The translations under genes were made by a program, and so were the position numbers. Positions 796 to 63,020 of a stretch of DNA of 64,000 nt are shown here, in pieces. This DNA comes from Lingula anatina (taxonomy: Eukaryota; Animalia; Brachiopoda), in assembly GCA_051362555.1 (NCBI GenBank), contig CM120644.1:23148534-23212533 (forward strand), written 5' to 3'. Numbering within the stretch: position 1 is the first letter of the stretch; every line of letters begins with the position of its first letter. The notes below the pieces were generated by a model. That model saw only the letters and a list, made by a program, of their open reading frames with translations, was not told where the DNA came from and ran no database searches.

Positions 796-14603
<13,808 letters not shown>

Positions 14604-15896: not shown

Positions 15897-17117
15897 TGTG
15901 TGTGTGCATGTGCGAGTGTGTGTGTGTGTGTGTGTGTGTGTATCCGTGGTATCGCTATTTTAGGCACCTGTTTATATATCATCCTTCTTTGCAAAGAGGG
16001 AAGCGACCAATATTTACTCTAAATGCCATTTTTTATCAATTATAACACTTAATACTTGCACCAATATACCTGTAGTTGACCTCGTATTAAAACTGGAATC
16101 ATATTCAAAAGCAACAAATGACACAATCCAGCTGATGCGCATAAATCTGACTTCATCACGCCTGGCGTCTAATTTGATATTCTCGCTGTTTTACTGATCA
16201 TGAGTTGTACGTAATCTTGATATGCATTAACGATGATTTCACAACACTTAATTAGTATCGCAACACTAGTTTTTAAATTCATTTCGTTTTTTCAAATGGT
16301 ATATTCATTTTCCAAGTGAACTGGGAACAAGAAAATAAAAATACCCCAACATTGTCACTGTTTCTGCAGCAGCAGATTATTATTTAAAAGTAAATATTTT
16401 TAAGAAAATGGCGCACATTCTTAGTAGCAGTGTTTAGCTCTACATCCATAGTTTAATATAATCCTCACAGCACATGAACGAGGCAAGGAATCTGAATAAA
16501 CATGTAAATAGTAACTTTCACATCTAACACTCCCTACAACAAATTAGACCCTAAAACACGTTGCTGCAATTTCCCTTGAAAAGTACATATATTGAGCAAA
16601 TAACATAAATATTGTGGCAAAAAACTACTTGTAGCATATAAATATCGAATCCCGTTATATTACTGTATTTGACAGCAAGGCACGCAGCATGACAAGTCAT
16701 TAAATACCCATTGCACATGTATTCAATCAACGTTAAACAAATGGTCAATTTGGTTTTCAAGTTAATTAAAAAAATAACAGGAAACCATGACCAGAAATAC
16801 ACTGCAACACCCGTGAAAGACGCCTAGCTTGTTGTAAATAACACGAGCGCCTACTATAATGTTGGACAAGTACTTTGTTAGCGCACACTACTCTCTCTTT
16901 ATTTATATATTTATCTTTAATCAGACATTTGTCGATACCTACAGTCCCTTATCAGTAATGTTGTGGCAATATATGAACGACAACAATTCAAAGAAAAATA
17001 GTAAATAAATAAATTACGTAAATGAAGTAAATTAAACAGCACAAAATAGTTCAACACAAAATTAAACAAACCAAACGGGAATATATATAAAGCAAGCCAT
17101 CCCATGACGTCACACAT

Positions 17118-19454
17118 CTAGTCCAGCTCCTGGAGCTCACCATTTACTATACAGAGGCGGGGCCAGAAGTAAAACCGTTTGGTGAAGGACATGGTTTCCA
17201 TGCTGGACACCTGCTGGTACTGACCTTGACCTTGGGTCTTCATACTGGCAACCCAGCTGTTCACCTGAAATACCACAAAGAGGTGAAATGTGATATAAAA
17301 TACCAGATACACTTTACCACAACAATAGCAGCAATGCAGTGATGAGTTTAATATAACATCAATCTAATATTGGACCAAAAGGTGGAAAAGAATAATCTGA
17401 ACTGCAATGGTACAATAATGATTTCTTGAAATAACAGTAAAACTCAATAATGTCTTCAAAGTATAACGACACTCAATAGTAGAATCAGTTACTACTAACC
17501 ACTATCCAATATTCAGTATCTCTCACTTTATCAAATGACTGAAGAAATTACTATTGGAATGAAACCATAACAGAGTGAATGAAGCCCTTAAACGTGCAAC
17601 GAATTCCCAATAATACAAGTCAGAAAGTCCAACCATTCTGCCTGACCTACCGAAGTAAGAAGCTCCAGAAAGTGTTTACTCCTCGCCTCCTCACTGAACA
17701 CTCTGACAATGGCGTTGATGAACCAGGACCCGTTCTCCTTATTTCTCCAGGACACGTAGTCTGAAATGAAGGGAGGTATAATTGACGAACACGATTGAAT
17801 TGAATGGAGTCAAAGGATATATTATATTGTGCATTGATTCAAAATAAAATAAAAATGCTACAAAAATTAATATCTGTCAAGATGTGGGGGAAACTAACAA
17901 GGCATTAAACAGCAACATAAGCGCCTTAATTCATTTTTTTTATTACGTAAAACATTGTTGAATAAAGTAACATATTATTTGTGTATGAAATCCCCGGCTG
18001 GTACAGTGTGTTTTGTTTTCTATATCTTAGTATTTGCCCACCTGGAGTGGTTGCCGTGGCAACGGCGATGTCACACATGTTAGCACCAAATTTGGACTCG
18101 CTTTCATTGCAACGCGCCCGCGCAGAATCAGACTGGCCGCCATCTTGTCTCATTGTTAGAGGGACGGATTCTCCCGCGACTCTACTGTCTTTCTTTGCTG
18201 GATGAAATACAGTTTTTGGTTTCAAATGTAAAGTCATCCATTTATCACCGAAATGTAATATTTTAACCAAATCGGTCTGTTTTATGCACTATTTTTCTAA
18301 TTTAATGTATATGTTGCTTGACAACAAACTTGTATTCTTAACGTCAATCAACAACTAATTTCGTTCCAAGAAAAACGTTTTACAAATAATTATAACTATA
18401 CTCTGAAAATGCACACACCATAGCTATTTAACGATGCATACAAAGTCAAAATTTTGTCACAAAAACCAACCAAATGCCAGTACATAGTTTCAAGTAGTAT
18501 AACTAAGAGAATTACCAAAAGGCATTGTTTATTTTTACCCGAAAATGATGTTTAAACGGATTTTTCTGCTGGCATTCTAAGCTGTATGTCAATGGGGCAG
18601 GAAAGTAGGTCACGAAAATAGGTTAAATTTACAACCAAAAATGTAAAGAAAGGAGCAGTCTAAAGGTCTTTTATGGCTGATCGAGTGATCAATTCAGTTT
18701 ATCCCTTGGCATGTCGAATTTATTTGAGTCATATAAGAATCTAGTAGAAGTGGTTTACATGTGTTACTGGGAATCCACGCTCCACCGATGCTCGGTTCGT
18801 ATGTACCTTTAATGTTTTTTTACTTACTTCCTTGGCAAGCCTGAATAAAAAACATTTTTGGTTTTCCCGCCAGGGCGGGGCAGCTGTCGGTGGTAAAGTG
18901 CATATACATCATACTGTAGGGCAAGCTGTAGCCATCTGTCCCATATACTGCGTTACTCATACCGTGACTCAGAATGAACACGATGAATGAATCACTAGTC
19001 CAGTGGCTAGGTTGTTTGCTCTCAGTTTCCATCACATCAAAGATTCCCTAAAATTATAACATTCAAAATGTACAGATTATAAATTATGATACACTGACTG
19101 CAAAGGTTTTAATAATACGATATATAACTGTTTTACCAATTCATATATATATATACAAATAAACGAACAAATAAACCCGCACGCACATACATGCACATGA
19201 ACAAACACAGACACGCACACACACACAAACACACTGACAATAAAACGTACGCACACACACACACACACACGTGCGCACCTGCTCACCTGTGCGGTCAGGT
19301 CATTATGCACAATAACGGTATAACTCATCTGTTCCATCAGCTCTACCAGCGCCTTGCAGTCCATTTCTGACCCGTCTCTCTTCTCATGGTGCTGGAAATT
19401 GATGTTGTTGACGATGACAGCGCGTCCACGGGGCAGGCCACAGTTTTGGTAGAC
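17118..19454 (-). CDS. Caspase (peptidase C14A) p20/p10 domain exons, QACQG type
   Basis: Catalytic SHG and QACQG; S1-pocket arginines in KRDGS and SWR. Confidence 0.95.
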
Positions 19455-21260
19455 CTGAAAGTAGAAGGAAAAATATGAGTCTTTCTAACAGTGGTATTTA
19501 CCTATCCGCACCCTTAACAACAATCTCATTTACCTGGAAAACAGTTAAATGCTGAACCATTTAAAGCAATAGGACAGGTACGTAGCGACATGTAGGGACA
19601 GAGACTAAATGCAAAGAGACGGAGGGATGGAGAAAAATCAGAGAGAGACAGAAAGAGAGAGAGAGAGGTTTATACACACATCGTCCTTGTAAGCTTCCTC
19701 CATGAACAGAGCAGGATCGGCAGCTCTCAGACATAGTGACGTCAACGGTAGTTGAGGCACGGCTAAAATCAACATATAAAGTCGAGTTAGTATCCTTGAA
19801 TTGCTCTATTGTTTGACATTACTTTTACAGGTCTCTCGTTTGGCATTTGAACGATGTGCACACTAAAATTCATGGATACGTTAACAGTACGATTTATATT
19901 ATTTTTTGATGAAACAAGTACTCTTTGGATGATAACATGATTGGCTGTTCGATTAATCTTACCTCTAGCCTGGAATTGGTCAATGCGGTCATAGGTCACG
20001 ATGTATTCCGGGTAACACTGGTCCGCCGTGAATAGGAGGAATTCCCGGAATAACTTCCTGGTATCACCTATCACGGAGTCGAAGGTCTCGTGATGGTCAC
20101 GGCAAATCTTCTCCCCACAGACGCACGGCGGTCTCCTTAATGTCTGTTGTTCCTCGCAGTAGTAGGCATTGCCGAGAAGAACGCGGCAAATCAGGATTTG
20201 GAGGTCCTCCGTTCGTCTACTGTCCATCTCGTCTGGAATAAGAATAATTCGATTAAATTTAATTGTGGTAATCCGATGGCATATAAACATATGAATAATT
20301 TAAATTTTAGTTTTTCTGAAAGACTTCTAGAGGAAAAAAAAGGTACATGTGCACATTGTCCATGTCCTAAAAAGAAATTATCACGACAACAGAAATAAGA
20401 CGTGACAATGAGAAAACTAACACGAGCAGTAGTACGCATATTTATACGAAGGCGTACTCCATGCCCACCTAGACGTACCTGCGTACTGATCCGCTTTGGT
20501 GGCGCTCTCTGACAAATAAATTGCTCGACCAAACATTCCTTTGCGAGCAATCCTGAAATCTGGCCCCATAGCACAAATAGATGGTATATTTGCACTCTTT
20601 GTTCCGTGAAACAGGTACTGTTCATTGATGTCCTCATTTAGTGTATCTAATACAGGGGATTCGGTCTCGACAGTCATGGGCTTTTTCATTGTGGGATCCA
20701 CGTAATAATAAGGTTTTAAGCGGCCCTGTGTTTGACGTAAGCGGTGCTGCCGCTTGGTAAGTTTATAACGCTCTAGTAAACCTTCGTTTTTGATGGCCTC
20801 GACTCTCTTTACCACAATAAAGGTGTGCTCAAGGTTTCGCGTGTCTCGCCCACGCCCTGTTTTCTTGCTTTGCCACGTTCCCTGAACCAGCTCCGTGACG
20901 GCGCAGAAAATCTCGGCACTCACGCCCATTGTAAAGCAAGCACTTTGGGATGGATTTGACAGGGATTCGGTGAATTTTTCGTATCTGGATTTCTTGCGTC
21001 TTGAAATGTTTAACTGACTAGATAGCGTATCTGGTAAACCTCCAAGAAGATCATAGCTAGACGTTGAGGCACCGAGGAAATCCTGAGCAGTGTAATCTGT
21101 CGAAAAAAAGACAACAAAAAAGCTATATCTAAGGTTCGGCATTATTCCTTAATTCGAATTGCCTTCGTTAATAAAACTAGTGGTTGTTTATTTTTCATAC
21201 CAAAACAAACAAAAAATAATATAAATAAATAAATAAATAAAATAATAATAATAATAATGA

Positions 21261-21311
<51 letters not shown>

Positions 21312-21818
21312 AACAAAATAATATAGATGATGGAAAAAAAGACAAGAAAGGCAACACTTATTATCAGCATTTAGGTCCATTTAACATTTGTTGTGTTTTA
21401 TTAAACGAGTCTTTAACGTTCGTACCGCCGTTTGCTCTGTGTTCCCTCCCATATCTGCGATCCTGCCTTTCCGTCACTGTAGAAGGACAAAAAGTCACCA
21501 CGTAGCAAAATAATTAAAAAGATGGATACGAAAAAAAGACGATAATTGAATGCACTCCCTGAGGTGATGGAATAAAAAAATACAAAAATTGGTGACTGAC
21601 GAATGAAATTATTATTATAATTGGATAAAACAAATGACAAAAATAGCTATCACGTACTTCATTTATCTAGAAAAATTAATACGTAGGTGATGAAATCAAT
21701 AAGAGGGTGAACAGATGAATCACTTATCATGTATACCTTCATTTTGTATTCCAGTAAACCACCTAAGAGCATTCCCCCAAATGGAATTAGTTTTCGGTCT
21801 TGCCCCTCCGGTCGCCAT
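17118..21818 (-). CDS. PARP-type ADP-ribosyltransferase-caspase fusion protein (10 coding exons, 634 aa)
   Basis: Exons 21818-21737, 21476-21426, 21096-20479, 20232-19963, 19762-19680, 19454-19287, 19047-18828, 18197-18042, 17760-17651, 17264-17118 total 1905 nt. All junctions are GT-AG and phase-compatible, with no internal stop. ART motifs: LFHGT, GMFGRAIYLSE, CRVLLG, FREF, YPEYIVTY. Caspase motifs: PRGRAVIVNN, KRDGSEMD, ILSHG, GKPKMFFIQACQG, ATTPDYVSWR..GSWFI, FTKRFYF. Confidence 0.88.
19963..21096 (-). CDS. PARP catalytic (tankyrase-like ART) domain exons
   Basis: INEQYLFHGT...GPDFRIARKGMFGRAIYLSESATKADQY | ...ILICRVLLG...FDSVIG...LFREFLLFTADQCYPEYIVTY; H-Y-E triad present. Confidence 0.92.
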
Positions 21819-22086: not shown

Positions 22087-23120
22087 TTATTTTAAGTCTA
22101 AAAAACTAGTAGACTTTACATAAAATATCATAAATAATACTACATAAAATATCATAAATAAAATCTAGGTAAAACAGCCATTAGCCCATACAATTAAATG
22201 CAATTAATACAAGATTTATAAAACCAATTAAGAGTTAATCAAAATATTTCCTAAAAAGGTATGTTTTGAGTTCTTTTTTAAAATGTTTGGTAGACTGAAT
22301 TGCTCGGATTTCCAGCGGTAATAGATTCCATTCCTTGGGACCTGCAGCTTTTAAAAGATATATCACCGTAGGTTTTTTATCGCATTTTTACTGGGTTGAG
22401 TAGCAATTGGTCTACAGACCGCAGATTACGCATTGGAACATAGTGACTGACTAATTCATTGATGTAAAATAAAAAGCATCGTGAGTAAAAACTAAAAATT
22501 TGAATAAAATTCTGGCTTGTAGAGGTAGCCAGTGTAAACTTTTTAAAACTGGGGAGATGTGTATACTTGTGGATGTCCGAGTTAATAATCTGGCCGAAAT
22601 ATTTTGAATGCGCTGCAGTCTAGCAATTTGTTTCTTTGGACAACCGTATAAAATGGAGTTGCAGGAATCAAATCGAGATGTAACTAAACAATTTATAACT
22701 GTGGCTGCAGCAGAGTCAGACAACTGATTGCGAATTGCACTTATGTTCCTAATGTTAAAAACCGCTGACCTGCATACACTGGCAATATGTTTGTTCATAC
22801 AAAGTGACCCATCTAAAAATACACCAAAATTTTTTGCATGAGGTGTTGGCTTAATAATGCTTGATCCAATTTTGAGCTGAATTTGTTGTGCTATCATACC
22901 ATTATGTGGCTGACTTATTACCAAAAGTTCAGACTTTCCATCGACAATTTTCAACTTATTACTAATCAGCCACCCGCGAAGATCATCAATTCATTCAGAC
23001 AATATATCAATAGATTCATTTGGATTTTCTAGATTGCAACAAGTAAAAATCTGTGTGTCATCAGCATAAATATGATAGCCAATGTTATGATGTCTTAGTA
23101 TGGCCCAATTGGTAAGGTAT
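22034..23120 (-). mobile_element. L2/CR1-like LINE 3' fragment with (TAA)n tail, related to 60520-62736
   Basis: YHIYADDTQI, LVTSRFDSCNSILYG, LHWLP; similar 3' end TTTATTTTAAGTCTAAAA. Confidence 0.88.
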
Positions 23121-23327: not shown

Positions 23328-26300
23328 GAGCGCGTCCATGAGAAAGCCAGACAGATCGGTCAGAAGGCGGCAAGGTGGGGGTCAGCAGATTTTAATAATT
23401 TTTGGTGTGGTAAACCACCAACATGAAAGATATTGTGAGCCACTGTCTTTCTTATTTTGGATCATTAGTTTTAGAGATATGGGGGAAGGTCTTTTATCCG
23501 CAATTTTGCCAAAATATATCATTTTTTAGTTATTAAAAAGATAAGTGGAAGACAGTTTTACTTTTTGGTTTTATATTTACAGAGCTGATGAATATTCATA
23601 AAACGCAGGTCAAGTTCGAAAATCAGCATGATCCGGCCATTATTGTAGAAGTTATGCTGTTTTTTCACTTTTCAGCATATATACAACACTGTAAACACAT
23701 TTCAAGGAAAACCGATAGGCCTGTTGCATGAAACGCACAGGAGTAATCAATCTTACTAAAACGCAGGTCAAGTTCGAAAATCGGCATGATCGGGTCATTA
23801 TTTTAGAAGTTATGCTGTTTTTTCACATTTCCTCAAAATCAATTCTTAGGCATGTTAACAGTCTTATTATTTGACTAATAAGATACATGAAAGTGTTTGT
23901 GTGACATTTCCTGCATCTTTACAACATTGTTAGTTGATTATGTAAAAATGATGGTGAATTTGTTAGCGTGTATTGTGTAATAAAGTGTCAAAAATGGAAA
24001 TAAACTCATATCATTGCATTTTGTCAGCTTCAATCATTCAGTATGTTCAGAATCTCAGAATGGAAGAAATTAGACATTTAACACTGTTTTATTGATATTT
24101 TTCACATCTCATTAATTTTCTTAGTTGATCTATAAAAAGTGCCGTAAAAAATGTTAATTTTGTTTTATGTTAAAAAAGTGTTAAAAATAGAAATAAACCC
24201 ATTTCAACGGTGCTTACATTTTGGCATTTTTAAGGTGTCACTTTGAAGTTCCATGGGCCTAAAAACATTTGTTAGTCATGCTTTCTGTTTGTCCATGATA
24301 CTAATATTTTATTATTAAAAATTGATGGTCATTATGCTGTTAAACATTATGTAATGTTGCATCAAAATTTGAAGAAACCCCTATTTTGGGCACTGCTTCC
24401 ATATTGTCCATTTAAGGAAAACCATGTCACTTACTGTTCTCAAACTTACAGGAAAGAAACATGGGGCCAAAATCGACTTTTTCACACATTGGCATTTTCA
24501 AGGTGTGACTTAGAACCACCACAGGGTTGAAGACCCATGCGAGTCACATTTTCTGAAAATCCATGATACGTATATTTTATTATCAAAAATTGATGGTCAT
24601 TATGCTGTTAAGCATTATGTAATATTGCATCAAAATAGAAGAAAACACAATTTTGGGAGCTGCTGCCATGAGGACCATTATGGGAAAACCATGTTACTTA
24701 TGATTGTCAAACTTTCAAAAAAGAAACACAGGACTAAAATGCAGCCTGAGTTGGAAAAACAGTCTAATTGGTTTCTTTTTCTGGAAGTTTTACATTTTAG
24801 TGAAATATTCATTACTATGGTAATGGCATATTCATTGTGGGACTCAGAGCTCCCTTGGACATGAAACCGCATGGTTATCAAATGTTCTATATGTCTATGC
24901 TACTTATAGTCAATAATTAAAAATTGGTGATCATTATTCTGTATTTTATTATGCAATGTTACATCAAAATTGACAAAAATCTGTTTTTACTGCTACTACA
25001 AACATTATAAAAAGAAAACTGTGTTATTAATTAGTATTTTTAACTTACAAGTATGTTTTAGGATTGGCATGCAGTTCAAATTAAAAAGCCAGCTCATTTG
25101 GGTTATCATTTATTATTGAATTTATGCAATTTTGTGAGAAATTTTCATTTTTCTCATTCTGGCATTTTCAAGGTGTGACTTTGAAGTTCCATTTGCTAGT
25201 CATGTTTTCTGATTGTCCATGATACTAATATTTTATAATTAAAAATTGATGGTCATTATGATGTTAAACATTATGCAATATTGCATCACAATTTGAAGAA
25301 ACCCCTATTTTGGGCACTACTCCCATGATGACCATTTAAGGAAAACCATGTCACTTACTGTTCTCAAACTTACAGGAAAGAAACATGGGGCCAAAATCGA
25401 CTTTTTCACACATTGGCATTTTCAAGGTGTGACTTAGAACCACCACAGGGTTGAAGATCCATGCGAGTCACATTTTCTGAAAATCCATGATACGTATGTA
25501 TATTTTATTATCAAAAATTGATGGTCATTTTGTTGTTAAGCATTATGTAATATTGCATCAAAATAGAAGAAAACACAATTTTGGGAGCTGCTGCCATAAT
25601 GACAGTTATGGGAAAACCATGTTACTTATGATTGTCAAACTTTCAAAAAAGAAACACAGGACTAAAATGCAGCCTGAGTTGAAATAGCAGTCTAATTGGC
25701 TTCTTTTTCTGGAAGTTATACATTTTAGTGAAATATTCATTTTTATCGTGTTGGCATATTCATTGTGGGACTCAGAGCTCCCATGGACATAAAGCCATAT
25801 GGTAACCAAATTTTCTACATGTCCATGCTATTTATAGTCAATAATAAAAAATTGGTGATAATTATTCTGTAATTTATTTTGTAATGATACATCAAAATTG
25901 AAAAAAAAAATGCACTGCTACTACAAACATTTTGAAAAGAAAACTGTGTTACTTATTATTATTATTTTTAACTTACAAGTATGATTTTTAGGATTGGCAT
26001 GCAGTTCAAATTAGAAAGCCAGCTCAATTAGGTTATTATTTATTATTGAACTTATGCAATTTTGTGTAAAATTTTCATTTTTCTCTTTCTGGCACTTTCA
26101 AAGTGTGAACTCTCATGGGCCTGAAGCCTTATGCTTGTTACACTTGTTACACATTTTACTTTCATTGGTAATACCTGTTGAGTATAAATAAAATTTGATA
26201 TTCAATTTGCAGTTAAGCATAATGTACTTTTTCATCAGAATTGACAGTAGCCTATTTTGTGCATTGTTATTTTCAGCTTTTTGTCTGTACATTTGACAGC

Positions 26301-27283
26301 TTTGCTGCCTTGTTTTAAAATTTTTCTCTCTTGCTCCCTGAAAATAAGATACATGCGCATGATGACATTGGATATGCACAGTAATAACTCATTAAATGTG
26401 GGGTGGGGGTGGGGGGTTGAATAACTTGTCACTAATCATTTTAATTTATTCAGAAGTTGTATGGCTCTGTTTGAAAATAATATTATCCGAGCAATCCTGT
26501 ATTACAGATCTCAAAATAAAAAAAAAAAACCTGCAAAAATGGGCCTCTTGATTATTTTGAGGAATTACGGTAACTGTATTTTGGGACAGAATTGATGGAA
26601 GCCATCTTGTATTTATAAAAATTGGATAGATTTGTCCTTATCAAAGCATTGTTTGAATTCCTGGCTGTGAGTCTTTGATTAAATTTGATTATTGGAAGGT
26701 ATTATCTCAAAATGTTCTGATATCTTGATTTCGGTCGTTTGCTTTTCTGGTAAAATTGCTAAAGTTTGAGGCACATTTTCAATATCTTCTGTTGTGTTTA
26801 ACACATTTTTTAAATTTTGTATGATGAGACCTACACATGCTCAGGATCCCTATACAATTTTATGGCTGTCAACCCTGCAAAAAGAGAGATATGAATGCTT
26901 GAACATTGCTTGGTAGAAAAGTAAGTTTGGGGGTGTGGGGTTATAAAAATAGGCGTGGCTCGTTAGTTTGTGGGTTAAACTGAAATTAAGTAACATGTTC
27001 TCAATGGCAAATGGCTGGTTTAAATAAGTAAATTATCAATTTTTTTTTAAATTCATCAATTGTGACATATTTGCTTATGAAGTGGCTTGACCGAAGCTGA
27101 AAATCAAGCCAAAAACGGCCAAAATATTTAATATTATATTGTAATTATATCCAATTATTTCTTTTGGGATTGTTGCCTTCAATGTGAATATCTCCTATGT
27201 GTGCAACTATATTATGAATTTGGTTGAAATCTGTTGACCCCACATCTTGCCACTCTCCGACTTGTCTTATCATGGACACACAC
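23328..27283. mobile_element. ~4-kb non-autonomous DNA transposon with TTAA TSD (Kolobok-like) and internal ~925-bp tandem duplication
   Basis: Left TTAA|GAGCGCGTCCATGA..GGCAAGGTGGGGGTCAGCAGATT; right AATCTGTTGACCCCACATCTTGCC..TCATGGACACACAC|TTAA; internal repeats ~24220-25160 and ~25160-26110; no transposase ORF. Confidence 0.72.
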
Positions 27284-37059: not shown

Positions 37060-40000
37060 AATATTTTTTTTATTCACAAAAAGACAAGCAAAATACATAT
37101 GCAAAGACACACACACACACAAGCACACACACATGACATTCACTATACATTAAGTAAACATGAAATTTATGTAGATAGCCAGACTACGTATAATACAATA
37201 TAATACAGGTGATGCTGCACATTACACGATACAAACATTTTACATAGAAGGAAGTAGCGAAAAAGTAACATGACACTGTAAAGTAAATTTAAAAATACAT
37301 TTTGCAAATCTTCCCTCTCCGCTCCACAGATAAAGCACTTTTCTGACACCTCAATACCGATTCTTTTCAAGTATGACCTAACTGGTAAGATTCTAAAAAT
37401 TATTCTATATTGGAAACACTGAAGTTTTGTTTCTCGTGTAACATAAAAACAATTCTCGTAAACATTCTTCCAAGTGATATTTATATTTAGATTTAGGTTC
37501 CATTTCCTTTCGTCTACCAAGTTTTTCACGAGTTTCACTCATGAGAACCTGATAGAAATCTTTACACCCATTTCGACTCTTTATAAGTAGCTGAACCGGC
37601 TGAGGAATATAAGGAAATAAAATTTATTCAAAAATTTCTTCATTGTTCTTTTCTTTTAACCTACATTTTAAACTGTTACGTATTCCAAAATATTTTAGAT
37701 CCCATATTCTATGAAGTCCAAATTTCCTTTCCAGTTCAGCTGTGGTTAAAAATTTCCCTTCGTTGAAAAGATCGCCAATTATTCTTAAACCCTTACTGTA
37801 CCATTCATTATCAAATATTGATACCCCACCCAATTTTACTTTACTATTATACCACAGAGGTTTAAGAGCAATATTGCTATTCATATCTTCTATACCGTAT
37901 GTTACATCTTTCCAGGAGATAATGACATCTCTCCAAAAACTATTTTTGCAATTGCGTAAGAGTATATCTAAATAATCATTTCCATAGTCAAAAATATTCC
38001 AAATAGATTGTAAATCAAAGGTGCTCTGGAGAATAGTGTTATATACGTTATTTTTAAGGTATAGTCTTCTTATACATGTACATTTTAATGCCGTATGAAT
38101 TTACTTAAATCTGTCATTTTAGACCACCATATTCATAATCTTTTACTATTTGACCTCTCCTTACCTTATCAATCTTGCTACCCCAAATGAATTGGAAAAA
38201 AAAGGGAATTTAATTTTTTGATGAATACTGGATCTGGATTTGGAGGAAAAATGAAAAGATGGTTCAGCATTGGAATGATAAGGGTTTTTACGGTAGTATT
38301 TCTATCAATAGGGGTTAGTATTCTTCTATTCCAATGCCGAATCATACCCTCTATCTCGGGATATGTTTCTCAAAGTTTAAAGTGACCATATCGTTTAAAT
38401 TTACCAAGAATTCTATACCTAAGAGATTAAATTGAGTCGAACCCCAATCAAGTTTCCATCTAACGTGGTGAAAAACTTCCCGACTATATTTTCTTGACCC
38501 AATCCACACTGGTTTAGTCTTACTGTTGTTGATATGGAGACCTGAAATTTTTGAGAAATAATCTAGTGTACGGAAAGATTCTGAGAAAGAAGACCTATTA
38601 CCATCTAATATAAGGGTGGTGTCATCAGCATACTGGATTATTTTAAATTCGGTGTCACCAAGTTTTATTCCGCAAATAACTTTGTTATTCTTTATCATGA
38701 TTGCGAGGATCTCGGCACAAAGGAGAAAGATATAGGGAGACAAAGGGTCCCCCTGACGACAGTCCCTCGAAATCTTGAAAGGCTTCGACAAGTAGTCGTT
38801 TTGTGCAATAGAGGCCTTGCTATCGTAATAAGGATATGGAACCACTTTTTTTATCGTTTCCCCAAAATTTTAAAAGTGTAAAACTCTATCAATGAAGCCC
38901 CAATCTACAGAATCAAAGGCCTTTTCAAAATTGATGAGAATGAGTAAAGCAGGAATATTTTGCTTTTCTGCGATATGCATTATATCATAAATCAATCTTG
39001 TATTTTCCCCAATATATCTTCCGGCAATAAACCCGGACTGAGAATTAGAAATAATTTCATCAAGAGAGAGTTTCATTCTTTCCGCTATACAGCCCGAGAT
39101 CATTATGTTAATAACATTTAAAAGGGTTATAGGCCTCCATTTTTTAAAATGAATTTTCTGATTTTATCGGCTTTTGGAATACAGGTTATAATCCCAAGAT
39201 TTTGACTATCCATCATTTTCCCTTTGATGAAAATTTCATTAACTGCTCTAATTAGAAAGTAAATCATTCCAAAAATATGGATTCAAGTGAACAGAAATGT
39301 TTTGTAAGCTTCTCTCCTTCCTCAATCCATCTGCATTTTGATCGGACGAGGACTCCTTTTAGTTTTTCTTGTCTGATATTTTTCAACGCATCCCTCTTAG
39401 CCTCAAGTTCGTCCAAAGTATTTTCATTTGGGTGATTCATTTCCATTAAATTAATTTCACTTTCTAGTTCTAATTCTTGCCTATGCCTTTGTTTTTTCTT
39501 GAAAGAGGAGTGGGGAATTGTCATTCCTTTAATTTCCATTAAAAGCATTTCTAAAAATAAGGAGTCATCAATCGTGAATATATTTGTTCGTTTGGAATTT
39601 CTGGAATTTTTTCTTCAGCGTACACTGGAATTGCATATTGTACTTTTGTTCTCTTAATTATATCCTTCACTTTACTCACATATTCCTCATCTTTCAAGAG
39701 GGAACTGTTAAGTACCCAAGTGCATTTGCCCTTAATAAATATATTAAGCTTTAATTCTAAAATTACGGGTGAATGATCAGATCGGTATGATGCATTAATA
39801 AAAATATTAGAAACTGAATTTTGAAGGTAATCTGCAATTAAAAAGAAATCTAGTCTAGCCTGCCTTCTGGGATTCCTTCTTCTCCACGTGAATCTCGTCA
39901 GGATAGATAATTCTGAAATAGTCAATTATATTTAGGTCATTCATAATTTCAAGTAGTTTTTGCCTAGCTCTAGGGTTATTCACATTTGCATAATGTTCTG

Positions 40001-41870
40001 TGTCTAGATCAGGGTTTAAAGTAAGGTTATAATGTCACCACAGATCAAAAATTTTTCATTATTGAAGTCTATTATTATATCTCGTACCTGTTCATAAGAG
40101 TCTGGAGTATCCCTGTTCGGGCCATAAATGTTGATTAATGTGAATCTATTTTTTTTTTCTATATTTACATCAAGAGCTATAATGTTCTGTGTCTATGTAC
40201 AGCCAAACAAAACTAGGGATATCGGTTGGGGAAGGATACACAGAACCATTTTATTCTAAACTGGGAATTAAGCAAGGCGATAATTTAAGTCCAGTCCTTT
40301 TTAACATTTTCATTGACGATGTAAAAACCGCACTAAACCCAAATGGCGATGAAAAAATGTCCCATATACTGTATGCAGATGACCTGGTGTTGCTCTCAGA
40401 AACAAGTGATGGCTTACAAAAATTATTGTCACGCCTTGAAAAATACTGCAAAAAATGGCAACTCCATGTAAACGTGAAAAAATGCAAAATACTTATATTC
40501 AATAAAGCTGGAAAAACTGAACAGCACATAAAATTTACAATAAATGAAAACATCCTGGAAAATGTTAAAGAATATCCTTATCTAGGCATCACCTTCACTA
40601 ATACAGGTAATCTCAATAAAGCAATGCACAACCTAAAACAAAAAGCATCGAAGGCCATGTTTGCACTAAAAAGCACTATATCCTCCCAAAACATATCTTC
40701 CCCACTATTACAAATGAAGCTATTTGATAGAACCGTAAAACCAATTTTGCTATATGGTAGTGAGGTATGGGGACAAGAAATTCTTAAACAAAAATCACTG
40801 AGCCTAAATAAAATCAATAACATGCCATTCGAGCAAATTCAATTAAAAATGTGCAAATGGGTTTTAGGAGTGAGAAAAACTGCCAGTAATAATGCCTGCA
40901 GAGCAGAATTGGGTAGATACCCAATCCTTACAGATATAATTAAATCTATGCAAAAATATTACATCAGACTTAAAAATCTCCCGAATACAAGAATACTGAA
41001 ACAAACATTTAACGAAGAAAAAATTTTGAAAAAAGATAATTGGACTAAAACAGTGGCGTCATTTAGACAAAATTGGGGAATTCAAAATTGGGATGAAACA
41101 CCAGACATAGAAAAACAAATTAATCTAAAAATTGAAGGACTCTTTTGGGAAGACTTGAGCAAGGAGGACAACAATAAACTGCGTACTTATCGAAAAGTAA
41201 AAAACTCATACGATCTCGAAAATTACTTAAAAATAAAAGCCACAAGCTCAGACAAAAAATACATTGCTAAAATGAGAATCAGTGACCATGAGCTGGCGAT
41301 AGAGAAAGGCAGGCACATGAAAATCCCCCTGGAAGAGAGAATGTGCACAAGCTGTAAAACGGAAATAGAGGACGAAAAACATTTCTTCCTCATTTGTAGT
41401 AAATACCAAAGAGAGCGACAAAATATGCTCAGTTCCCTCCCAAATACAGTGAGACAAAATTATGAATTAGCAGGCAGTGATCAGAAACTATCCATCCTCC
41501 TTAACCCTCGAGACCATAAGTCACTGAAAGCAATATCACATTATATACAGTTAAGAGCACAATGAAGTAGCACTCTCTTTTATGTAAGCATAATATGGTA
41601 GTTTCTGTAGTAGTCTAGACAGCAAACAATGTTAAATTGTAACATTCAAAGCTGAATAAATTATTATTATTATTATTATCATTATTATAAGGTTGCCATC
41701 ATTCGTTTTAAATTCTTTAAGGTACTTGAATTCAAAATTATTATTTATTAAAATTGCAACACCCCGAGAGTTAGTAGAAAAGAAATTAAAATATGCTTTG
41801 TAACCCTATTCTGATATAATCCTTTTTTCTTCATGGCTATCAAAATGGGTATCCTGCAAACATAGTATTT
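37060..41870 (-). mobile_element. Degenerate Tx1/L1-clade LINE ORF2 (APE endonuclease + RT), interrupted by a younger LINE
   Basis: CLQDTH and SRGVAIL (41700-41870), NIYGPN, ARLDFFL..SDHSPV, FEKAFDSV, RQGDPLSP, QYADDT; many frameshifts. Confidence 0.9.
40189..41690 (+). mobile_element. 5'-truncated LINE (RTE-X-like) with an uninterrupted 458-aa RT/C-terminal ORF and (TTA)n tail
   Basis: GIKQGDNLSP, LYADDLVL, ELGRYP, RISDHELAIEKGRH..CTSC..EDEKHFFLIC; AATAAA and TTA repeats at 41655-41690. Confidence 0.9.
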
Positions 41871-45386: not shown

Positions 45387-46869
45387 ATGAAAAGAATAAC
45401 TGAAGAACGACAAAACCTGGTAGTAAATTCATGTAATTTAATATGCCATTTATTTATGTTATGCAATTTAGTGAATTCCAAGGCCTCACCATGGAAGTCA
45501 TCGGCTCGTGTGGTTTTGGTCTCGAGCTGAACTCAGTGCGAGATAAAACGTCACCATTTCTGGCAGCATGTCGTAAATTCTCCGGCACGTCATCACTAGC
45601 GATGATGGCGCCCTTCTTTATTTCCGGTACGCATATGATCACGTCGTGACAAGGTCATCCATCTATTGGCTGGCCTTAAGGTCAGAGTGTCAATTTGATG
45701 CCCTAATAATTTGGGCTTTGAAAACTGTATATAAACCCAAGGATCAATTATCACTGCTACGTTCAATTATCCTTATTTTTTTTACCTGATATGGCCTCCG
45801 GTAGGCACGTTGGGTTACACTGCCCGTCAACCGTGTTCAGCAGAAACAAAATATGTATGTGATCCGTAGCTTATGTTCCTGATTGCAGGGATTTTTCCAT
45901 CGATGACAGGTCTAGCCAAGTTGTGGAACAAATATCTGATGAGAAAGAGGAGGCATGACATAGGCGCACTTGCCAGCGCTGCCATACAGTCCAGATTAAA
46001 TAATCCAAAGGTATAATGAAACTATATTACTGGTAAAAACCTGTCATGGATTGGAATGAATTATGTCTAATAATAATGTGTTCTTAATTCACCAACAAGT
46101 AAGTAAATATAAAAATTTCAAAACGCAAATTAAAGCCCTACGCTTAAACGCCTCTATGAGTTTTGGGTTTTCTTGTAAAATATATATAAAGATCAACGCG
46201 TTAATAATAATAAAATTATTGAATGACATGAGATAGCATATCAGATAAAGTTCAAAAACATGAATGCATGTCATCCCATAAGCGTAAATGCAAAGTAATT
46301 CAGTGACCTATATAAGTTTTGAAAGTGGTTAACAATCACGTGGTGAATTTTCAGTCTCGACGGGTGGATCTCCTACAGTTGATTTTGGACGCCAAAACTG
46401 ACAATCTGGACTCGACTGTACCTCAGGCGATGACGGACAGTGACGTAATATCAACACAAGATGGAGTTGAGGCGGGTCAGCAGAGCGGCACTTCCTCATC
46501 TCAAAGAAGATATTCACAAAAGGTGAAACTCACAGAAAAGGTAAAAGGGCAATCTGGTGTGTGTGGGTGTGTGGGCGCGCGCGTTCGTGTGTGTGTGTGC
46601 ATGTGTGTGTATATGTGTGACTGTGTGACTGTGTGCATCTAAGGAGGAATTCAATGTTTCACGACAATGCATACACCGTAAATGATACTTATTCAAGCGA
46701 ATTCCGCTGTAGCAATATTTGATAGAACCTGCTAATGTGGACGGTTCGAAACCGAATCCGTTTAAGTCTATAAATGGCACTCACGATTAAAACGTTGTTA
46801 ATGTAATAACTGTTTTAATATATAGAATTTTGGTAGGACAACATGAATGGGCGAGCACTGATTGTTAAT

Positions 46870-53249: not shown

Positions 53250-55128
53250 TTATGTTCGTTCAGGTAACAAGAAAGGTCTCCATGGCGGCAGACCAGGTGG
53301 ATCGGGTGGGTTCAAGTCGTCATAGTCGTTGGCCGCGTCCCCATTGTAGTCTCCGCAGATTCCACGTACCCCCAGGGCAGAGGCGCAATGTTTGCCAGTC
53401 ATTTCTATCTCAACCGTGTGCAGGTAGACACTGACAGTCATTGGAACTTCATGGCAACGTATAATGTACCCTCTAGGTGCAAGACTGTCCCCTGTAACAA
53501 GTCCACCAGCATATACGAAAGGTGTTTCAGTAATTTCGCCTGTGCCTCGGTTCTGGAAGGAAAATGCAAACGATGTTGTTGTTTTTTTTTTCTGAATCAC
53601 AGAAACAGTATAAACTACTGCAACATTTCTACAAGATAGGGTGGAACTAGGAAGATAGAAGTGGAATAGGGCTGGGGCTACATCGGACTCGGTTCGGGAA
53701 GGCAAATGCAAAACATTTTTAAAAAAATGCAATATTTATAATGAATAGCAAGCAGTTAATGAACAATATCGATTGCACTGCATTGAAATGAAATCCATAC
53801 GAGAGAGAGAGTGAAGGAGGGAGGGAGTGACAGCAAGGAACGTACTACATGGACTTAATAGGTGGGTTTAAAATGTGTTAACTGAATTGAAAACTAAAAG
53901 AAGGAAAAAGACTCACCCACAACGTCACAGTTGAGCCTAAATCGGCCACGAAGAATTCTTCAGAACACTTCACGTGTACTCGTTTGATGCGTGTTTTTGG
54001 TCCCCCGTTAAAGAGCTCCTGCTCCGTGGCCACCCACCAATAATTACCCGTCCACGACATGACCATGATGCCGAATTTCGTAACGACTGGTAGACTTATA
54101 GTTTGAACAGGAGTGTTATAACTGAAGTGCAGGCCGTCAAACGTCTTGTAGCGAACATCGCCCCGTGCCCAGCAAGTGGCATTCGGAACTAAATGAAAAG
54201 AGGATTCCAATTTTAAGTACATTATGCTGAAGGTATCAATGAATAAATATCTCAGCTTCAAATGCTTGAAATACTTATCTTAAGTTTGGTGTTCTGTTGG
54301 CTAAAGGGTTGTGAGAATAGTGGAAATGAAGCCGGCTTCTAAATTAAAATAAATAAATAAATAAATAAAATAAATAAATAAAATAAAATAAAATAATAAA
54401 AATAATAATAATAATAAAAGAAAAAAAGAAAAAAAAATCAACCGACATTTCAAACCTAACATAGGTTACATTTTCCGTGCTGCGTCCATGTAGCATACGA
54501 AATCGCACTAGTTCTAGGCCTGGATAAAATAAGAAATCCCCGTGTTGTGTGGTTCGTAAAATTAACTTTATTAAAAGTAAAACGTCGACACGAGGCAGAA
54601 TATATATATTTTATGTATATATTATGTTTTAATTACTCCTTAACTGTCGCACTGTCGTTAAGAGAGACAGAAGAATAACTTGATCCTGCAATCTCAAAAC
54701 TTATAGAAACATGTTTTCAATTTTTTGTCATGTTTGATTTTTAAATCCCTGAACAGGATAGAATGTAGGAAACAAATTCAATCATTTATCCATTGAGGAA
54801 ATCACATGTATGCTTAAAAGTAAATTGGCAAATAGAAGTTTTCAAGTTCATTTACTTCATAAAATATGTCTTTGTTTGCCATTATCAAATACGCAGAATA
54901 CTAAAATCAACGAGCTACTTAAAGGTGCGTTGCGTTTCTCTGGTATTAAAACTGTCATTTCTACTTACGTTCATAATAAACTTCAGGTGCCAAAGATTCG
55001 TTGCCTACAAGTGGTGCTATATTAGCTTCAATTTCATCAAATTCCTCGTCGTATACCGCCGCACTGGGCCCAACGCACTGGCAAATCAGCAGTATGGCCA
55101 CGACCAGGGAAATAAAATGTCGATCCAT
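53250..55128 (-). CDS. Small secreted single VWD-domain protein (~244-251 aa)
   Basis: Exons 55128-54969 (signal peptide MDRHFISLVVAILLICQCVGPSAA plus acidic segment), optional 54519-54499, 54188-53917 (ATCWARGDVRYKTFDG), 53552-53250 (GICGDYNGDAANDY, stop); phases are consistent. Confidence 0.82.
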
Positions 55129-60519: not shown

Positions 60520-62736
60520 ATAATATATAATAATAATATATTTATTTCAAGTCTAAAATCCATAAAATGTTCAATAGACTGTACAACATAAAATACAAAG
60601 AAGTTTATAGATAAAAAATGGTTAAGATATATTTTATATAAATAAGAGCTAAACTAACTTAATTGTAATAAACAGTAATTAAAAGTAAAAAATCCAAGGT
60701 TTCTTTAAAATTATAAAATTTAAGATTCATGAAATATGAATAAAATATGAGTTTTTAATTCCTTTTTAAAAGATTCTTGTGATTCTATTTGTCTAATAAA
60801 AATTGGCAACTTATTCCACTCTACTGGTGCAGCTACACAAAATGATATGTCACCATATGATTTTAACCTTGATTTTGGAACTTTCAGTAAAAGTTTGTCA
60901 CCAGACCTCAGGGATCTTTGAGGGCTATAATGTTTGACTAAATCAGTTATATATGGTGGAGCTAGATTATAAAAGCAGCATGTGTAAAAACTAAAACCTT
61001 AAATAAAATTCTGGCCCTAACTGGTAACCAGTGCAGATGCTTTAAAATTGGAGTGATATGGCAATCCCTAGGCTGTAGCATTAAAAGCCGTGCTGATATA
61101 TTCTGGATGCGTTGTAATTTTTTATCTTATCATCTGGACATCCATATAATATAGAATTGCAATAGTCTAGCCTGGAAGTTACCAATGAGTGTATAACAGT
61201 AGCAGCAGCAGATTGATTCAGATGTTTCCTTATGGTACCAATATTCCGAATGTTGAATAAACAAGACCTTGTGATGTTGGAGATCTGTTTGTCCATTGAA
61301 AGTGTAGAATCAAAGTATACTCCTAAATTTTTTACATGGGGGGAGGAAAATGCCATACTAGCTCCAATTTTAAGTTGCAAGTTATGAGCAAGGCCCTTGT
61401 TGTGGGGTTGAGTAATGACTAAAAATTCTGTTTTTCCATCATTTATCTTCAATTTGTTTGAAATTAGCCAACCTCTGAGGTCTGATATGCAATCAACAAT
61501 TGTGTTCACAGACAATGCTGGATCATGGATGTTACAAGATGTGTACAACTGGGTATCATCGGCATAAAAGTGGTAACCTATCTTATGATAACGCAGAATT
61601 GCTCCAAGGGGTAAGGTGTAAACACAAAACTTAAGCGGGCCAAGCACGCTCCCCTGAGGAACACCAAATAAAAGCTGTGAGAGTTCAGAAAGCACACCAT
61701 TTATATTAACTTGATGCATTCTCCCAACAAGATAGGATCGTAAAAGATCTAAGGCCTTATCTCTAACCCCTACACTCTGCTCTAGAAATGTCAATAAAAT
61801 ATTATGGTCTACTGTGTCAAACGCAGCAGACAAATCTAACAGTACCAATAACATAGCAGAATGTTTGTCAACACCACTTAACAAATCATTTTTAATTCTC
61901 AAAAGTGCAGATTCTGTGCTATGATTGAATTTGTAGGCTGACTGCATTTCCTCAACAAGATTGTTTGCTTCTAAATGCTTAAATAGTCTAACTGCTATAA
62001 CCCTTTCTACTACCTTAGATAAAAATGACAAATTGGAAACAGGACGATAGTTTACCAAAAGATCCGTGTCAAGGTTGTCCTTTTTGAGTAGTGGGCGAAT
62101 TATTGCAGATTTAAACTTTTTTGGAAAAACACCCACAGTGAAACATTTGTTGATAATTTCCACAATCAAAGTTATTACAGCCGGAAGAATCTGAACCAAT
62201 AATGATGATGGGATCGGGTCTAACATGCATGATGTCTTTTTGGAACTGTTTATTATCTTTGTTACTTCACAAGTGGTTGTTGGTTCAAATATAGTGATGA
62301 GTGACTGCGGTTCTTGTAAAAGTTCTGACAAAGGTGGATGCGATGGTGTAGTCACAGTCTTTCCTAATTCAGAAAGTTCAGCGTTGATATTACTGACTTT
62401 AGACACGAAAAAGTCACTCATGTTATTTGCAAGATCTTTCACTGAATCTGTTTTGGGGTACTTAGAGCAATTAGTTTTTCCCAGAATAGTGTTGACAGTT
62501 CTAAATAAAGCCTTGGTATCACCATCACATTCTTGTATCATGTTAGAATAATACGTTTCTTTAGCTTGACAGATTAATTTGTTTACATGACAACATGCTT
62601 CTTTATAGATCTGATGATGAACAGTTAATTTATTACCTCGCCACTTCCTCTCCGCTTTCCTTCTGTCTCTCTTTGCCTCCAGAATGTGATCATTCATCCA
62701 AGGTTGCAGATCTTTCTTAACAAACATTGGTAACAA
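60520..62736 (-). mobile_element. L2/CR1-like LINE, 5'-truncated, RT largely intact
   Basis: NYRPVSNLSFLSKVVE, LLDLSAAFDTVDH, GVPQGSVLGP, FYADDTQLY; one frameshift near 61115; TAA-rich tail at ~60515-60545. Confidence 0.93.
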
Positions 62737-63020
62737 CCCGCACAAAAATGCAGTAGTATCGAAGTAGCAAAGAAGCATTAACGCAGTAGTGGTGTGGAGC
62801 ATATTTGCAGTAGAAATGCAGTATAGCCTACTGCAATTCTACTCAAAAAATTACATAGGGTTGTACAGAGGAGGAGCATTAATGCAGTAGATTAGCAGCA
62901 TGATAGAAGCATGTTTCAAATATGCTAATTAGCTCCCAAATCGAAGCAGATTTGAAGCATGTTTGCAGTATGATTGCAGTAGTCTACTGCGCTGGAGCAT
63001 CTACTTCGTTTTCGTGCGGG
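62737..63020 (-). mobile_element. CCCGCACG MITE, copy 3
   Basis: Same family as 31928 and 33168; 2-bp AA duplication. Confidence 0.82.

Follow-up and report, generated by a model that had tools for sequence, protein, structure and literature searches.

Do a PARP-type ADP-ribosyltransferase (ART) domain and a caspase form one protein at a locus of the brachiopod Lingula anatina and, if so, how might the two enzymes act on each other? We analysed a window of 64,000 nt (assembly GCA_051362555.1, contig CM120644.1, positions 23,148,534-23,212,533), and all coordinates below are positions in this window. On its minus strand, from 21818 to 17118, lies a gene of ten exons whose product carries an ART domain followed by a caspase domain.

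One gene encodes both enzyme domains

The exons sum to 1905 nt, coding for 634 amino acids (aa) and a stop, and all nine introns of the spliced model are of the GT..AG type. In exon-level and whole-protein scans, the Pfam matches to PARP (PF00644, residues 130-330, E 7e-16, 58.8 bits against a cut-off of 26.7) and to caspase (PF00656, residues 377-618, E 8e-56) both exceed the curated cut-offs. The fusion reading frame depends on splicing, because retention of intron 4 or intron 5 brings a stop after 57 or 13 codons, respectively. The gene has the following parts, all on the minus strand.

21737..21818, minus strand: exon 1 with the start ATG, aa 1-27; N-terminal region, predicted at low confidence
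21426..21476, minus strand: exon 2, aa 28-44
20479..21096, minus strand: exon 3, aa 45-250, a disordered stretch and then the N-terminal half of the ART, folded from about aa 96; H208 at 20608-20606 and Y238 at 20518-20516, also K245 and Y249
19963..20232, minus strand: exon 4, aa 251-340, C-terminal half of the ART with the Cys287/289/294-His cluster; E314 at 20044-20042; DRID335, a candidate caspase cut site, at 19981-19979
19680..19762, minus strand: exon 5 of 83 nt, which encodes the flexible linker, aa 341-368
19287..19454, minus strand: exon 6, aa 369-424, start of the caspase large subunit; S1 Arg394 at 19379-19377
18828..19047, minus strand: exon 7, aa 425-497; His452 at 18966-18964, Cys495 (QACQG) at 18837-18835
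18042..18197, minus strand: exon 8, aa 498-549, intersubunit linker; candidate maturation sites D516 at 18144-18142 and D521 at 18129-18127
17651..17760, minus strand: exon 9, aa 550-586, in the small subunit; VSWR contains S1 Arg555 at 17746-17744
17118..17264, minus strand: exon 10, aa 587-634, ending in the stop codon; its tail is common to Lingula Roc-COR caspases
16898..16921, minus strand: candidate polyadenylation hexamers (ATTAAA at 16921, AATAAA at 16903), a sequence motif only

The motifs HGT, GRAIY, FREF, SHG, QACQG, RDGS and SWR are all found in the 634-aa protein. The ART triad H208-Y238-E314 aligns with FHG, GIY and LAEY of tankyrase-2. The caspase dyad consists of H452 (SHG) and C495 (QACQG), and the S1 pocket for an Asp at P1, formed by R394, Q493 and R555, aligns with the pockets of CED-3 and caspase-7. 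A previous reading of the window, made from the sequence alone, had proposed a single spliced PARP-caspase gene with intact catalytic residues in both halves; the gene model agrees with it on both counts.

RNA reads support the fusion junctions

RNA evidence comes from seven of nine L. anatina runs, among which X1, X2 and X3 are poly(A) runs of one study. Expression is strong in three of the seven; X4 and X5 hold almost nothing, and X7 and X9 only traces. Reads of X1-X3 cover every exon they were mapped on, on the expected strand. All nine introns are supported by RNA, seven as listed joints and two only as loose read ends; the listing of joints skipped a repeat at 19636-19681 and dropped two joints at repeats.

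The joint that leads from the PARP part to the linker exon (19963/19762) is crossed by 33, 32 and 25 reads in X1, X2 and X3, and by none in the other four runs. Linker exon 5 itself has a depth of 36-50 reads at 19712. The next joint, from linker to caspase (19680/19454), is not in the joint list, where the repeat is skipped. Eight X2 reads end at 19454 with a 14-nt loose end that equals 19680-19693 exactly, its sole exact match in the window. The sequence-only reading had singled out these two junctions for an RNA check: the former is seen as a listed joint, and the latter only through these loose ends. The exon 6/7 junction is likewise seen through loose ends, with 2 mismatches in 16 letters. 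Support for the fusion junctions consists of pairwise joints or loose ends, and none of the reads displayed runs from exon 4 through to exon 6.

Listed joints connect exons 2 and 3 (21094/21428, 29 and 39 reads), exons 3 and 4 (20232/20479, 48-69 reads per P1 run), exons 7 and 8 (18197/18828, 48 and 66 reads), exons 8 and 9 (17760/18042, 53 and 52 reads) and exons 9 and 10 (17262/17649, 17 and 18 reads). Between exons 1 and 2, the joint 21476/21737 is present in four X3 reads, and a diverged exon end is found in 14 reads of X2 and 18 of X3. At this end of exon 1 (21737-21775), the expressed copy is shorter in the reads, with 33 letters against 36 in the window, and stays in frame.

Depth is zero in 4 of 4 runs in the intron bins 19062-19177, 19526-19641, 20338-20453, 21150-21381 and 21498-21729, and no polyadenylation hexamer was found between 19455 and 19962. 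Two separate neighbouring genes are rejected by the junction reads, by the lack of a hexamer in this interval and by the empty intron bins. The depth of caspase exon 6 (135, 98) is somewhat higher than that of PARP exon 4 (66-84). A minor shorter transcript, the sibling copies or 3' bias may account for this.

The reads agree with the window mostly at 90-99%, the X2 reads falling into four identity bands of 28, 285, 574 and 98 of 985. Among the 52 read-derived codon differences listed, none makes a stop and none hits a catalytic residue. Of the 18 nonsynonymous differences listed in ART, linker and caspase, 17 produce the amino acid found in a sibling copy, mainly P0013 or P0014, two of the copies considered below; a minority of reads carry the window's own letters at some positions. 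Because the reads chiefly match sibling copies, we assign expression to the gene family, and only weakly to this locus. Exons 1 and 2 are expressed, though the RefSeq models of P0013 and P0014 begin later, and these models may therefore be 5'-truncated.

Copies and earlier description of the protein

The gene product is the L. anatina protein XP_013395828.1 (P0012), from which it differs in 2 of 634 residues. Its cluster at 90% identity comprises five loci on five contigs, with products of 634, 611, 534, 454 and 268 aa, and the copies are 91-97% identical. The H-Y-E triad is found at all five loci and the caspase dyad at four, the 268-aa copy (P0015) being annotated as ending before the dyad. 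Tandem copies within the window were considered and discarded, as tblastn finds one locus only.

The fusion of PARP and caspase was found in L. anatina only, at these five loci, among 259 proteins, which included only the best 150 of 9486 matches of one search. A search with the caspase half among proteins longer than 1110 aa gave one match, a Roc-COR caspase.

The sequence-only reading knew of no characterised protein with this architecture. The PARP-caspase architecture is already known, because a 2024 survey of lophotrochozoan apoptosis genes lists the same accession as a caspase-Y with a PARP prodomain (PMC11463336; bioRxiv 10.1101/2023.12.11.571055). That protein equals ours save for the two residues, and the domain call is the same. 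The survey counts PARP as one of four unusual prodomains, standing 'instead of the CARD'. In its available text, the entry is a one-sentence in-silico note without transcript evidence, catalytic analysis, copy number or mechanism. It describes the PARP part as 'alpha-helical', for which we find no support in Pfam. Its supplement lacks XP_013407220, XP_013401300, XP_013412607 and XP_013415815, of which the first three are Lingula Roc-COR caspases. In the literature searched, the 2018 Lingula immune-gene paper (PMID 29278680) aside, we found no functional study of the architecture. The present analysis adds evidence for the junctions, the lineages of both parents and a dimer model that can be tested.

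The ART half is related to PARPs of PARP14-like build

Among PDB sequences, the ART is closest to the tankyrases (E 1.9e-26), followed by PARP12, PARP15 and PARP14. A fold search agrees, with TNKS2 first (Z 21.3, root-mean-square deviation (rmsd) 2.3, 190 residues aligned), then a second tankyrase match (20.9), PARP10 (19.9) and PARP15 (19.4); the Foldseek search listed only caspases. Tankyrases (TNKS1/2, PARP clade 4) are defined by ankyrin repeats and a SAM domain before the ART (PMC2964712), and their ART has a zinc-binding motif (bioRxiv 2022.04.24.489311). The Pfam scan detects neither ankyrin nor SAM in the fusion protein. The Cys/His insert of TNKS2 is a gap in the family profile and is absent from XP_013395828.1; the fusion has its own Cys3-His cluster, which follows an RRPP motif. 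The protein is not a tankyrase, because it has no ankyrin repeats, SAM domain or tankyrase zinc insert, and its nearest relatives are PARPs with RRM, KH and Macro domains. The earlier label of a PARP/tankyrase-type ART is thus apt for the core, which is closest to tankyrase among solved structures and shares with it the H-Y-E triad and a predicted head-to-head surface, and needs correction as to tankyrase membership. A regulatory helical domain of the PARP1 type gave no Pfam hit at E up to 0.1, and aa 1-95 are predicted at low confidence.

Apart from the fusion itself, the ART is most similar to XP_013397857.1, an RRM-Macro-KH-PARP of Lingula (47% identity over 231 aa); mollusc proteins with the same domain order come next. 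These relatives share with PARP14 and PARP15 (macro-PARPs, clade 3C) a build in which RRM, KH and Macro domains precede the C-terminal ART. Pfam finds no Macro, KH or RRM domain in the fusion, which has lost them. Clade-3 PARPs are mostly without the catalytic Glu (PMC2964712, PMC13224862). At this position PARP14 and PARP15 have Leu, whereas the family of the fusion keeps Glu (E314; 60 of 61 sequences). PARP3 also keeps Glu, although it is listed as a mono-ART. Conservation within the family is high at the other catalytic positions (H and Y in 61/61) and at the three cysteines (60, 59 and 60 of 61).

Of 64 relatives with PARP alone, 58 match up to at most two residues from their C-terminus, at the equivalent of aa 334. 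From there the fusion frame runs six codons further to a phase-1 donor, and such an ending would fit exon shuffling. In the ART tree the fusion stands outside the main mollusc-containing clade (98/95). Judged from the sequences, the ART may have come from the C-terminal catalytic exons of a Lingula RRM/KH/Macro-PARP, joined at a phase-1 intron to a caspase of the Roc-COR type, an origin that is not settled.

The relatives form a lophotrochozoan PARP family (P0123, P0144 and about 60 mollusc-rich relatives) that combines a PARP14-like RRM/KH/Macro build with a tankyrase-like H-Y-E core and is widespread in molluscs. In this family the Cys3(-His) cluster after the RRPP motif is possibly a zinc site, and the enzymes possibly carry out poly-ADP-ribosylation. 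We found no enzymatic study of this PARP14-like H-Y-E parent family in the literature searched. One unnamed protein (P0122, ENA, 1154 aa) has five tandem PARP domains.

The caspase half probably belongs with Roc-COR caspases

The predicted caspase fold matches 4jj7_A (VIA Z 32.2, rmsd 2.3, 220 residues aligned). The top PDB sequence hit is CED-3 (E 6.5e-42), with which the fusion shares the VSWR-N-GSW substrate groove, and the intersubunit linker has Asp residues at 501, 516 and 521. The catalytic domain is like those of CED-3 and of the CARD initiators caspase-2 and caspase-9. The fusion has no CARD, the prodomain typical of caspase-Y, in the Pfam scan, and activation through the adaptors CED-4, Apaf-1 or CRADD cannot apply because of this lack.

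Outside the fusion family, the caspase domain is matched best by Roc-COR caspases of Lingula and by a Bcl-2-Roc-COR caspase of Owenia. Separate phylogenies of the two domains had been called for by the earlier reading and were built. The alignment was picked after 15 trial subsets. The caspase tree has 30 rows; 23 rows of a 53-row set were dropped, including the long-branch sequences P0185 and P0214, of which P0185 fell inside the fusion group in a quick tree of all 53. In the 30-row tree the fusion is sister to the Lingula Roc-COR proteins XP_013401300 and XP_013412607 (98/94), with which it also shares the C-terminal tail. A larger clade (91/85) also takes in the Owenia protein, a caspase-RIG-I helicase of Lingula and two further COR caspases of this species. 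The clade of the fusion is in turn sister to the Lingula CARD caspase-Y XP_013405490 (Casp.Y3) and XP_013416922 (92/92).

The nearest caspase domains are those of Roc-COR caspases from Lingula (XP_013401300, XP_013412607, XP_013407220) and Owenia (CAH1786849), at 38-46% identity. Like the fusion, these proteins have an N-terminal module that is not of the death fold; theirs is a GTPase unit and that of the fusion an NAD+-using ART. Roc-COR has been described as a dimerising unit (PMC4104024). Since Roc-COR is the module of the closest caspases, it was likely this GTPase dimeriser, rather than a CARD, whose place the ART took. The earlier proposal that the ART replaces a death-fold prodomain is therefore likely true only at one remove, and a tree with the CARD caspases as sister is not rejected by the approximately unbiased (AU) test (p 0.128).

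The Lingula caspase-RIG-I-like helicase XP_013415815 has a caspase of the same clade grafted onto an immune protein. There the caspase is N-terminal and its partner an RNA sensor, whereas in the fusion the caspase lies C-terminal of the ART. Grafts of this kind on Lingula RIG-I-like receptors are already described as CASc-RLRs (PMC8998645), and P0139, P0263 and P0264 are such fusions. Roc-COR caspases are expanded, with P0124, P0129, P0146, P0020 and P0262 in Lingula and P0131 in Owenia, the last of which also has a Bcl-2 domain.

A predicted dimer surface and a model of activation

AlphaFold2, with a 25-row alignment, predicts two folded domains (mean predicted local distance difference test score (pLDDT) 64.9, predicted template modelling score (pTM) 0.43). 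Confidence is low for aa 1-95 and for the linker 342-367 (pLDDT <50 in both), and for the intersubunit loop 500-536. For a homodimer of the ART domain, the ipSAE is 0.68 (median of three runs), against 0.00 for the best of three controls. The runs agree in at least 96% of contacts, with a pLDDT of at least 84. In calibration on microbial proteins, 21 of 30 solved homodimers passed the threshold and 0 of 23 monomers did; for eukaryotic proteins the counts were 17 of 29 and 0 of 30.

The predicted surface comprises aa 150-161, 213-227, 283-284, 295-300 and 318-321, with the two-fold axis at L157. Its elements are helix 2 (L157 at the position of H1011), the D-loop's base, and the beta6-beta7 and beta8-beta9 loops. 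By PDB alignment, the surface maps to the tankyrase head interface (H1011, E1046/R1047, H1117-P1120, R1143/E1145), which promotes catalysis (PMC9712121). PARP15 uses a homologous surface, and its dimer is required for activity (PMC12572374). Among 61 relatives, D224 is kept in 59 and R/K226 in 59.

Initiator caspases are activated by induced proximity. The explanation that we favour, though tentatively, is that pairing of the ART domains could place the caspase domains of two molecules side by side and so activate both enzymes, as part of a death response of innate immunity. The sequence-only reading had offered three mechanisms, namely a caspase gated by NAD+ or ADP-ribosylation, an effector released by the caspase and an integrated decoy; the dimer prediction favours a fourth, related to these, in which the ART acts as dimeriser. 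The ART domains would pair head-to-head through the predicted surface of the tankyrase/PARP15 activating type, upon a putative immune trigger such as rising expression, occupancy by NAD+ or a ligand, or clustering. The activities of both caspase and ART would rise on pairing. The paired caspases could then process themselves at D516 or D521, with a specificity that probably leans towards DxxD, like that of CED-3, and the ART might optionally be released later at D335. The immune context is suggested by the parents and clade-mates of ART and caspase.

Several points weigh against this explanation. The outcome of the dimer prediction speaks for likeness rather than binding, and it may be a memory of the solved tankyrase and PARP15 dimers, because the predicted surface is the very interface seen in them. 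Among eukaryotic pairs without an older solved relative, only one of seven passed. Most interface positions vary across relatives, and five of 25, including residue 157, vary among the Lingula copies; copy-variable sites are not significantly enriched in the interface (5/25 against 19/216 elsewhere, p 0.085). The tankyrase head contact needs polymerisation through SAM, and the ART domains of PARP14 and PARP10 did not dimerise in vitro (PMC12572374). Forced dimers of caspase-9 reach a small fraction of the activity obtained with the apoptosome (PMC1088972). A constitutive dimer would need a brake. As to ancestry, the ART tree does not resolve the fusion against two Lingula paralogues. AU tests reject neither the CARD-sister tree mentioned above nor a Roc-COR clade without the fusion (p 0.126), and the closest Roc-COR caspases, P0129 and P0146, have SACQS instead of QACQG and with it lose the customary context of the motif.

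A broader proposal, which we regard as possible but doubtful, is that a single caspase clade serves Lingula as a death module that can be plugged into various immune proteins: Roc-COR GTPases, a RIG-I helicase and a PARP. In the PARP case, a dimer of ART heads would replace the adaptor platform, and ART pairing and ADP-ribosylation would control caspase activation within one polypeptide. If the pairing model is right, a caspase would be activated without a death-fold adaptor, through the surface that activates tankyrase and PARP15, and NAD+ chemistry would be linked to apoptosis or pyroptosis within one protein. This would also help to explain how cell death starts in brachiopods, which are described as being without APAF-1 and caspase-2 (PMC11463336).

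Alternative explanations

The protein could instead hold an ART that the caspase releases as an effector, which we consider unlikely. An upstream caspase would cut the intersubunit linker, as in executioner caspases, and the caspase domain would free the ART at DRID335 to consume NAD+ or modify targets. The protein has just two DxxD motifs, and D335 ends one of them; it sits at the ART/linker boundary and is present in all five copies, and the substrate groove shared with CED-3 would suit such a site. Against this, the P1' residue after D335 is Gln, and caspases favour small residues at P1'. Furthermore, Pfam detects in the ART no regulatory domain whose loss would activate it, and the model of the whole protein, at the pTM given above, shows no confident packing of ART against caspase. 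The PARP14-like build of the relatives suggests another role, to which we give still less credence: as an integrated decoy or tripwire, the ART would mimic its antiviral parent, and the caspase would be set off once the ART is bound, cut or reversed by a protein of the pathogen. PARP14 is antiviral and fast-evolving (PMC13224862), and the same caspase clade has been grafted onto a RIG-I helicase (PMC8998645). Variable sites among three copies are also more frequent in the ART (16/235) than in the caspase (7/266; Fisher p 0.03). However, the 52 listed codon differences derived from reads give no significant contrast between the halves (12 nonsynonymous and 8 synonymous in the ART, 5 and 9 in the caspase; p 0.30). 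The Macro, KH and RRM domains, which would be plausible targets of pathogens, are lost in the fusion, and a pure decoy need not keep H-Y-E.

The intact triad and the other residues of the NAD site, both read from the alignment, are compatible with an NAD+-gated brake, which appears improbable. The ART would modify its own caspase or linker and hold it off while NAD+ is plentiful, and NAD+ depletion upon infection would release death. Auto-modification weakens tankyrase polymers (PMC9712121), and such a mechanism would supply the brake that is missing from the pairing model; yet the Ser that follows the conserved Lys in tankyrase is Ala246 here, as it is Ala in 46 of 61 relatives. Least probable in our view is a young, tolerated chimera whose halves are independent, or of which only one matters, with copies that are partly assembly haplotypes and decay. 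The restriction of the fusion to L. anatina within the proteins searched, the close identity of the copies, the annotated end of P0015 before the dyad and the strong expression in only part of the runs would all fit. However, both halves have diverged widely from their parents (to 47% and 38% identity, with stem branches of 0.74 and 0.83 changes per column) and have kept frame and catalytic residues, as have the expressed copies in their codon differences. In addition, five loci exceed two haplotypes if, as we assume, the assembly is of one diploid animal.

Other features of the window

Two repeats, one in intron 7 (18450-18812) and one upstream of the gene (23540-26315), are heavily transcribed on both strands with many loose ends; they are likely elements of many copies that also occur in other transcripts. 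The fragment 22451-22990, which lies about 600 bp upstream of the start codon, resembles by eye a remnant of a long interspersed nuclear element (LINE)-type reverse transcriptase (RT) and has no Pfam hit. The remaining features are as follows.

2472-14231, plus strand: pieces of a convergent neighbour gene, with Cys-rich EGF-like exons recognised by eye
9926-10666, plus strand: VWA exon, E 9e-48
13755-14231, plus strand: ZP-C exon
about 6945-8105: degenerate tandem repeat
38351-41565 and 61081-62838: LINE-type RT remnants, with RVT_1 at 38354-38869, 40183-41562 and 61084-62838
46316-46642, plus strand: exon that presumably resembles cytochrome P450, judged by eye from a motif; no Pfam hit at E 0.01
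53250-54279, minus strand: exons that match VWD weakly (E 0.003), short of the curated cut-off

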